Assembly (NCBI RefSeq): GCF_003334765.1
Contig: NZ_QOWT01000104.1
Length of the DNA stretch: 720 nucleotides
Strand: one strand, 5' to 3'
Source: Escherichia coli
GTDB lineage: Bacteria; Pseudomonadota; Gammaproteobacteria; Enterobacterales; Enterobacteriaceae
Part shown: positions 1 to 720 of the stretch, one piece after another
Layout of the letters: the number at the start of each line of letters is the position of its first letter
Position numbering within the stretch: position 1 is the stretch's first letter
Program-made: the position numbers and the translations under genes
The notes under the pieces: model-generated
Databases searched by the model: none
Seen by the model: the letters and a program-made list of their open reading frames with translations, nothing else
Told to the model about the DNA's origin: nothing

Positions 1-363
1 CTCCAGTGACCGGTACCATGTATCACGGGCCTGTGCATCCATTAAGGAAAGCATCCCTGAACGTTGCATCAGGTCACGCCAGATTTCGCGATCGAGATTG
101 CGTGTGATGGCTTTCATTGCGGTTTCCGGTTTCTCCATCAGCCAGCAGCCGCAGCGAAAATCCTGTTTCATGGCCCAGTCCGGGGCGGCTTTACCGCCAA
201 TACTTTCTGTCATTGCTGATATTTCAGCCAGTTGCCGGATAAGTGTGTCGATTTGCAGCAGTGTACTCTTTCGTACAGCCAGAATGTGGCGGATACTGGT
301 TGAGCAGATAACGTCCGTATGCCCGGTGACCACTTCCGGACGGGAGATTGTGATGTCTGACAT
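1..363 (-). CDS. hypothetical protein, N-terminal 121 codons (3' end truncated by window left edge)
   Basis: Same minus frame has no stop codon anywhere from 447 down to 1. First ATG after the upstream stop is at 363..361, preceded by AAAAGGGAAACCGATA (AGGG about 9 nt upstream). Translation begins MSDITISRPEVVTGHTDVICSTSIRHILAVRKSTLLQIDTLIRQLAEISAMTESIGGKAAPDWAMKQDF... with balanced, protein-like composition. Not listed in the ORF track because it has no in-window stop. Confidence 0.6.
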   Translation of the reverse strand, partial: MSDITISRPEVVTGHTDVICSTSIRHILAVRKSTLLQIDTLIRQLAEISAMTESIGGKAAPDWAMKQDFRCGCWLMEKPETAMKAITRNLDREIWRDLMQRSGMLSLMDAQARDTWYRSLE

Positions 364-372
364 TATCGGTTT

Positions 373-377
373 CCCTT
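373..377 (-). promoter_or_regulatory. Shine-Dalgarno (ribosome-binding site) for the downstream minus-strand CDS
   Basis: Minus-strand sequence AAAAGGGAAACCGATAATG; the AGGG core sits about 9 nt upstream of ATG 363..361. Confidence 0.5.
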
Positions 378-384
378 TTGGTTT

Positions 385-419
385 ATAAACGAAAACGCCA
401 GCCCTGTTCAGGCTGACGT
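385..419 (-). terminator. candidate Rho-independent terminator after the upstream minus-strand CDS
   Basis: Minus-strand RNA ACGUCAGCC[UGAACAG]GGCUGGCGU forms a 9-bp stem (one G-U wobble, 6 G-C pairs) with a 7-nt loop, followed directly by UUUCGUUUAU. It begins 28 nt after the TAA stop at 450..448. The plus-strand equivalent has a C-A mismatch and no T-tract, so the signal is strand-specific. Hand-folded; no energy computed. Confidence 0.4.
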
Positions 420-447
420 CAGTGGAATGAAGTATGGTGAGTGATAT

Positions 448-720
448 TTACCGGTTCTGGTGCAGAAGCTGCAGATGACGAAGAGTACGGACATCCTCCC
501 GGGCCTGTTCGATACAGGGCAACAGTGCTACCGAATCCGTTTTATCCTCATCGTTGTCAAAGATAATTCCCGATTCGCAGTCGATATTGTCCTGCAGCCA
601 CGCAATGAGGATATCCAGCGCTGTTTCAGTGGTTAATGGCATCACGCTCTGTATCACTGTATTGTCTTCCGGCAACTGATGAGGGCTGGCAGAAGTCGCC
701 GGTGTTTCGGTAGCGTCACG
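448..720 (-). CDS. hypothetical protein, C-terminal part (5' end probably beyond window right edge); Pro/Ser/Thr-rich segment followed by a strongly acidic ~64-aa tail
   Basis: Minus-strand frame with codons at plus positions 1 mod 3 is open from the window edge at 720 to TAA at 450..448. The track's TTG start at 675..673 is not a boundary: the frame continues upstream as ...RDATETPATSASPHQLPEDNTV.... Composition is protein-like and CTG/GAA/CCG-rich codon usage is typical of Enterobacteriaceae. Internal ATG at 642..640 has only a weak Shine-Dalgarno, so the true start is probably outside the window. Confidence 0.55.
   Translation of the reverse strand, partial: RDATETPATSASPHQLPEDNTVIQSVMPLTTETALDILIAWLQDNIDCESGIIFDNDEDKTDSVALLPCIEQAREDVRTLRHLQLLHQNR

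Follow-up and report, generated by a model that had tools for sequence, protein, structure and literature searches.

This analysis concerns a window of 720 nucleotides from Escherichia coli (assembly GCF_003334765.1, contig NZ_QOWT01000104.1), by which is meant the whole stretch of DNA that was analysed. It covers genes for the DUF5983, DUF957 and DUF4942 proteins, and has matches in 4,898 of 5,426 complete E. coli genomes, at roughly 12,800 places, the median genome carrying three copies. In a record that is 100% identical to it, the genes all lie on the minus strand and begin with those for a RepB-like protein, a GTPase, an Ag43 fragment, an antirestriction fragment, a JAB/RadC-like protein and DUF987, followed by a YeeU-family antitoxin, the CbtA toxin, a truncated DUF5983, DUF957 and DUF4942, and finally by integrase and IS1 remnants beside dcuS. 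The locus is the distal end of a CP4-44-type, prophage-like E. coli island. At 3862-5191 and 6673-6870 of L001, the source-identical genome, the DUF5983 gene upstream of DUF957 is truncated, and the island tail runs up against fragments of an integrase and of a cadC-like regulator, with an IS1A copy beside dcuS. The counterpart of the window in a K-12-type genome, at the right end of CP4-44, follows yeeW, with the DUF957 gene reduced to a truncated pseudogene. The DUF957 and DUF4942 proteins found no match in NCBIfam or PADLOC scans, and Pfam recognised only a domain of unknown function in the DUF4942 protein, so that nothing about the flanking proteins suggests a DNA-binding or modifying enzyme that would read a site between their genes. 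The literature on yoeF, DUF957 and DUF4942 holds only genome-annotation mentions, with nothing on the spacer. The features of the spacer and its flanks are collected in Table 1.

Table 1. Features of the DUF957/DUF4942 region, in window coordinates.
Feature	Position	Strand	Description
DUF957 gene	448..645	minus	65 aa in the RefSeq annotation; stop codon 450..448; followed by the hairpin
DUF957/DUF4942 spacer	447..364	minus	84 nt; sense strand reads AUAUCACUCACCAUACUUCAUUCCACUGACGUCAGCCUGAACAGGGCUGGCGUUUUCGUUUAUAAACCAAAAGGGAAACCGAUA
Palindrome	413..422		CTGACGTCAG; 10 bp, identical to its own reverse complement; 413-420 in the 5' arm of the minus-strand hairpin
Predicted terminator stem-loop	394..420	minus	11 pairs, of which 3 G·U and 6 G-C; about -18 kcal/mol (-17.6 to -18.1)
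Hairpin 5' arm	420..410	minus	GACGUCAGCCU
Polymorphic stem position	419	minus	A on the plus strand, U in the transcript here (U·G wobble); C in most copies (C-G pair)
Hairpin loop	409..405	minus	GAACA, 5 nt
Hairpin 3' arm	404..394	minus	GGGCUGGCGUU
U-rich tract after stem	385..395	minus	UUUUCGUUUAU on the transcript; overlaps the decamer at 381-390
Second perfect decamer	381..390		GTTTATAAAC; spans the last part of the U-tract and the A-rich DUF4942 leader
Shine-Dalgarno-like AAGGGA	372..377	minus	8 nt before the DUF4942 ATG; in homologues AAGGA is conserved at the corresponding position
DUF4942 gene, 5' part	1..363	minus	ATG 363..361; continues beyond the window; Pfam PF13708, E = 5.5e-66

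A preliminary description of this DNA had singled out the palindrome at 413-422, which it saw as overlapping the 5' arm of a terminator hairpin and as one of two exact decamers in the same spacer, and had raised the idea that a protein bound there could modulate termination. Its structural observations are sound: the self-complementarity is exact, both decamers do fall within the 84-bp spacer (DUF957 stop at 448, DUF4942 start at 363), and the palindrome does run into the minus-strand stem-loop (420..394), eight of its ten bases being part of the 5' arm while the remaining two (421-422) immediately precede the stem in the transcript. The second decamer is likewise real, and only its distance needs correction, from 23 bp to 22 intervening bases (32 from start to start). 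The two are the only perfect 10-bp palindromes in the window, which holds no perfect 12-mer palindrome. Dinucleotide-preserving shuffles of the whole window produced a mean of 0.69 perfect decamer palindromes and P(≥2) = 0.15; with the 84-nt spacer alone, a region picked post hoc, the same shuffles gave a mean of 0.056 and P(≥2) of about 0.001. Both decamers sit in sequence that is otherwise constrained, one in a GC-rich stem and the other across a U-tract and an A-rich leader.

A terminator scan placed the hairpin directly after the DUF957 stop codon, its stem (420..394) starting 27 nt past the codon and consisting of 11 pairs that enclose a loop of 5 nt; the tail is T-rich, and on the minus strand UUUUCGUUU comes after the G-C portion of the stem. 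When the sense-strand spacer was folded with RNAfold, this hairpin was both the MFE and the centroid structure (-20.1 and -18.1 kcal/mol), with z = -2.4 against shuffles. The antisense strand folded no better than its shuffles (z = -0.58), and its hairpin is interrupted. The plus-strand sequence after the hairpin, CAGTGGAATG, is without a T-run; a bidirectional terminator was rejected for these reasons. Searching the whole window against Rfam (E ≤ 10) gave only two chance-level matches to snoRNA models, eukaryotic and archaeal (E = 4.5 and 5.6), both away from the site.

Comparison with homologues shows how the hairpin has been maintained. A scan with the DUF957 protein, taking one genome per species, gave 31 loci, and eight E. 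coli copies spread across the identity range brought the set to 39 loci from about 15 genera, or 40 copies with the window. A hairpin with a T-rich tail directly follows the DUF957 stop in 38 of the 39 loci, and the DUF4942 gene comes soon after in nearly all; the genera carrying it include Escherichia, Kluyvera, Citrobacter, Enterobacter, Edwardsiella, Yersinia, Mixta and Serratia, among others. In an alignment of the 24 distinct spacers (MAFFT, with the consensus by RNAalifold), the consensus stem has nine pairs, and standard pairing is found in 95.4% of cells, falling to 23-49% when the 3' partner is slid by one to three columns. Four of the nine pairs show changes on both sides, i.e., compensatory changes (e.g., CAGCC/GGCTG to CAGTC/GACTG, CTGCC/GGGTG or CTTCC/GGAGG), and none of 500 column shuffles matched the observed covariation score or percentage paired. 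Where cells depart from Watson-Crick pairs, G·U on the sense strand predominates (19 cells, versus 2 of C·A), an excess that fits a sense-strand RNA structure rather than a DNA-binding site. The T-run after the stem (alignment columns 77-80) is nearly invariant.

Some individual loci may be mentioned here. The one locus without the conserved hairpin, from a Lelliottia sp. (L024), has a DUF957 relative followed by different sequence and a different downstream gene, with a TTTATAAAAGGAAAATG leader kept. Downstream of the DUF957 pseudogene of the K-12-type genome (L033), the hairpin and U-tract are intact, with a GAATAC loop and with C at the stem position that is U in the window. The genome of Serratia sp. 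DD3 contains at least six copies of the DUF957-hairpin-DUF4942 module (L025-L030), of two sequence types. An E. coli- or Citrobacter-type module also occurs on short contigs under non-enterobacterial names: L002, L003, L005, L007 (Collinsella MAG), L008 (Lachnospiraceae MAG), L032 (Segatella copri MAG), L004 (Arthrobacter sp.) and L022 (Chryseobacterium sp.). These labels most likely reflect binning errors or contamination, and not transfer.

All of the sequence-level marks of an intrinsic terminator are present, namely a GC-rich stem, a U-tract on the sense strand only, a place after a stop codon, and conservation of pairing rather than of sequence. The hairpin is very probably an ordinary Rho-independent terminator, or a partial one (an attenuator), standing after DUF957 and before DUF4942. 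On the transcript, GACGUCAGCCU would pair with GGGCUGGCGUU around the GAACA loop, with UUUUCGUUU following, and the polymerase would be released as the hairpin formed in the nascent RNA at the U-tract. Set beside the intrinsic terminators of enterobacteria, it shares their GC-rich stem of 9-11 pairs, short loop, immediate sense U-tract and location just after a stop codon, as well as compensatory conservation of pairing and predicted activity in one direction only. Nothing structural separates it from them; the points of difference are that the U-tract here is broken by CG and that a co-oriented gene lies 30 nt on, which is perhaps attenuator-like. Because the U-tract is interrupted by CG (as in UUUUCGUUU) and the co-oriented DUF4942 gene, starting 30 nt beyond the stem, lacks a predicted promoter, the hairpin may leak and let part of the transcription through. 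A single promoter-like match was found in the window, TTTATA-16-GATAAT at 389..362 on the minus strand; it does not overlap the palindrome, and was rejected as a promoter for DUF4942 because its -10 overlaps the start codon. In published Term-seq tables (Adams et al. 2021, PMC7815308), no sense-strand 3' end is listed for yoeF or yeeW, or at the K-12 homologue downstream of yoeF; expression of the island is probably poor, so that the absence weighs neither for nor against termination. On the strand opposite to yoeF, the same tables place a 3' end at 2078833(-) that is sensitive to bicyclomycin (PMC7815308).

A hairpin that is real and selected could also serve mainly another purpose, as a 3' stabiliser of a processed upstream mRNA or in tuning the translation of DUF4942, and the palindrome would be just as incidental to it. 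The flanking genes are co-oriented and close together, DUF4942 lacks a predicted promoter of its own in the window, and the distance from hairpin to SD and a TTTATA(TA)AAGGA leader are conserved across genera, all of which would suit such a role. However, the conserved T-run right after the stem is what defines an intrinsic terminator, whereas a stabiliser would not need it, and the predicted fold does not sequester the SD; a function of this kind in place of termination is unlikely.

While the hairpin is widely conserved, the palindrome is not. The perfect decamer is confined to three of the 40 copies, those of the window, L003 and L007. The usual E. coli form, CTGACGCCAG, stands in twelve other Escherichia-type copies, and two further E. 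coli copies (L035 and L036) read ATGACGTCAG, while the remaining, more distant genera have ATAAGCGCCAG, ATAAACGCCAG, ATCAACGCTGC and similar sequences from which the left half is absent. Outside the Escherichia-type copies, ATAA, ATCA or ATAT stands in place of the left half CTGA, and the right half is kept only as GCCAG, as the stem requires. Even with one mismatch allowed, the decamer occurs once in 12.7 kb of the island, and in about 100 kb of the other 39 loci no copy was found beyond the homologous position in L003 and L007.

These observations bear directly on the idea that CTGACGTCAG is the operator of a dimeric regulator, which, acting on the DNA or the nascent RNA, would modulate termination and read-through into DUF4942. 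Like the operators of CRP/FNR-type and toxin-antitoxin regulators, the site is a perfect 10-bp dyad in an intergenic spacer; a pair of perfect decamers in an 84-nt spacer is rare in shuffles, and the allele that completes the dyad is found on more than one haplotype background. In contrast to such operators, the dyad is unconserved in homologues, with neither half-site retained as such, the site is not repeated in the island, and no promoter is predicted where it could act. The variation obeys the rules of RNA pairing, with G·U tolerated, and not the symmetry of half-sites, and the perfect form is a minority allele in E. coli. Orthologues keep the pairing of the hairpin through compensatory changes while losing the palindrome, and the protein-binding idea is for that reason not supported; an operator here is highly improbable. 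The more modest suggestion made alongside it, that the palindrome may simply be part of the terminator structure, is the one that stands, positions 413-420 being the 5' arm of the conserved stem.

The allele in question lies at position 419, corresponding to alignment column 54, where 21 rows have C-G and three have U-G, so that the T completing the palindrome is a derived transition from a C-G pair to a U·G wobble. It weakens the predicted hairpin by about 2.7 kcal/mol (-17.6 for the T allele versus -20.3 kcal/mol for the C allele). Frequencies among the 5,426 complete E. coli genomes were estimated with 30-nt megablast queries, each with a 28-base seed forced across the site, and the resulting counts are lower bounds that cover four haplotypes only. 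On the GAACAG loop background the T allele was found at 715 places and the C allele at 2,571, and on the GAACAC background at 291 and 715 places, respectively, giving totals of 1,006 versus 3,286; T is the minority, at about 23% of the four haplotypes. All four combinations of stem allele and loop exist, which points to recurrent mutation or to gene conversion among paralogous copies of the island.

In all likelihood, CTGACGTCAG is a real but incidental by-product of one C-to-T change in an ordinary terminator stem. The ancestral and majority 5' arm would end in ACGCCAGCC, as demanded by the stem, and in Escherichia-type copies the bases before this happen to be CUG; a single C-to-U transition would then turn CTGACGCCAG, already palindromic in four of its five pairs, into the perfect CTGACGTCAG, a change that would be tolerated because U·G still pairs. 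Hairpin arms should readily yield short perfect palindromes in this way, with transitions tolerated as G·U pairs completing them by chance. The sequence, the predicted fold with its conservation and covariation, the difference between the strands and the allele frequencies are direct results, and from them we infer both that transcription would actually terminate at the hairpin and that the palindrome is not read by a protein. What was noticed belongs to a familiar class of element, and the functional speculation attached to it is rejected. A candidate regulatory site is thereby removed, and what is left is a small annotation point, that the DUF957/DUF4942 spacer of CP4-44-type islands carries a conserved predicted intrinsic terminator; expression of DUF957 and DUF4942, two genes of unknown function, is probably unequal.

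Against an incidental origin, it could be argued that the occurrence of the T allele on several backgrounds might in principle reflect selection, and not recurrent mutation or gene conversion. The C-to-T change would in that case have made a new site for a host or island protein (with the TGACGTCA core), or an allele with weakened termination, spread over at least three haplotype backgrounds by repeated selection, and read-through into DUF4942 would then differ between island copies carrying T and those carrying C. There is very little likelihood of this. The sequence TGACGTCA is the eukaryotic cAMP response element (CRE), a site for CREB/ATF (bZIP) proteins, and its core is identical to that of the palindrome, while the hexamer GACGTC, identical within the palindrome, is the recognition sequence of AatII, a restriction enzyme from an unrelated bacterium. 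Nothing in the island points to a cognate protein for either, and both resemblances are coincidences of sequence. Least probable of all is that the palindrome is a target for DNA modification or restriction, perhaps recognised by the DUF4942 protein and hence autoregulatory, for although it is a palindromic hexamer/octamer of type II-like character, 50 nt upstream of a gene of unknown function, it is missing from most copies that have the same DUF4942 gene, no NCBIfam or PADLOC defence model fits either flanking protein, and chance alone would give a single such hexamer about once in 4 kb.

Proteins that alter the formation of a terminator hairpin, as the preliminary description had imagined, do exist, e.g., TRAP, PyrR, BglG/SacY and LicT. 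The RNA motifs recognised by these proteins are specific ones, overlapping a second structure, the antiterminator, that competes with the hairpin. The candidate motif here is unconserved, and an alternative RNA structure formed by the palindrome itself was considered and rejected: because its halves are adjacent, it cannot form a competing hairpin, the mini-hairpin being worth only -0.1 kcal/mol.

The second decamer is also variable, its place being taken in E. coli copies by ATTTATCTGC and ATTTATAAAC. In the loci of Kluyvera, Citrobacter, Mixta, Edwardsiella, Yersinia and Enterobacter (L009-L023), the stretch that separates the U-tract from the start of DUF4942, some 60-75 nt past the DUF957 stop, mostly reads TTTATATAAAGGAA, and the TTTATATAAA of distant genera is itself a perfect 10-bp palindrome. 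The latter could consist of nothing but U-tract, A-rich leader and SD, or could be conserved as a -10-like or a translational element. A short repeat of the CTCACTCA type at window positions 425-447 on the minus strand, immediately past the DUF957 stop, is polymorphic in length, as seen also in L004, L005, L035, L036 and L038, and the spacers are 84, 92 or 96 nt long as set by an extra (T)CACTCAT(CAT) unit.
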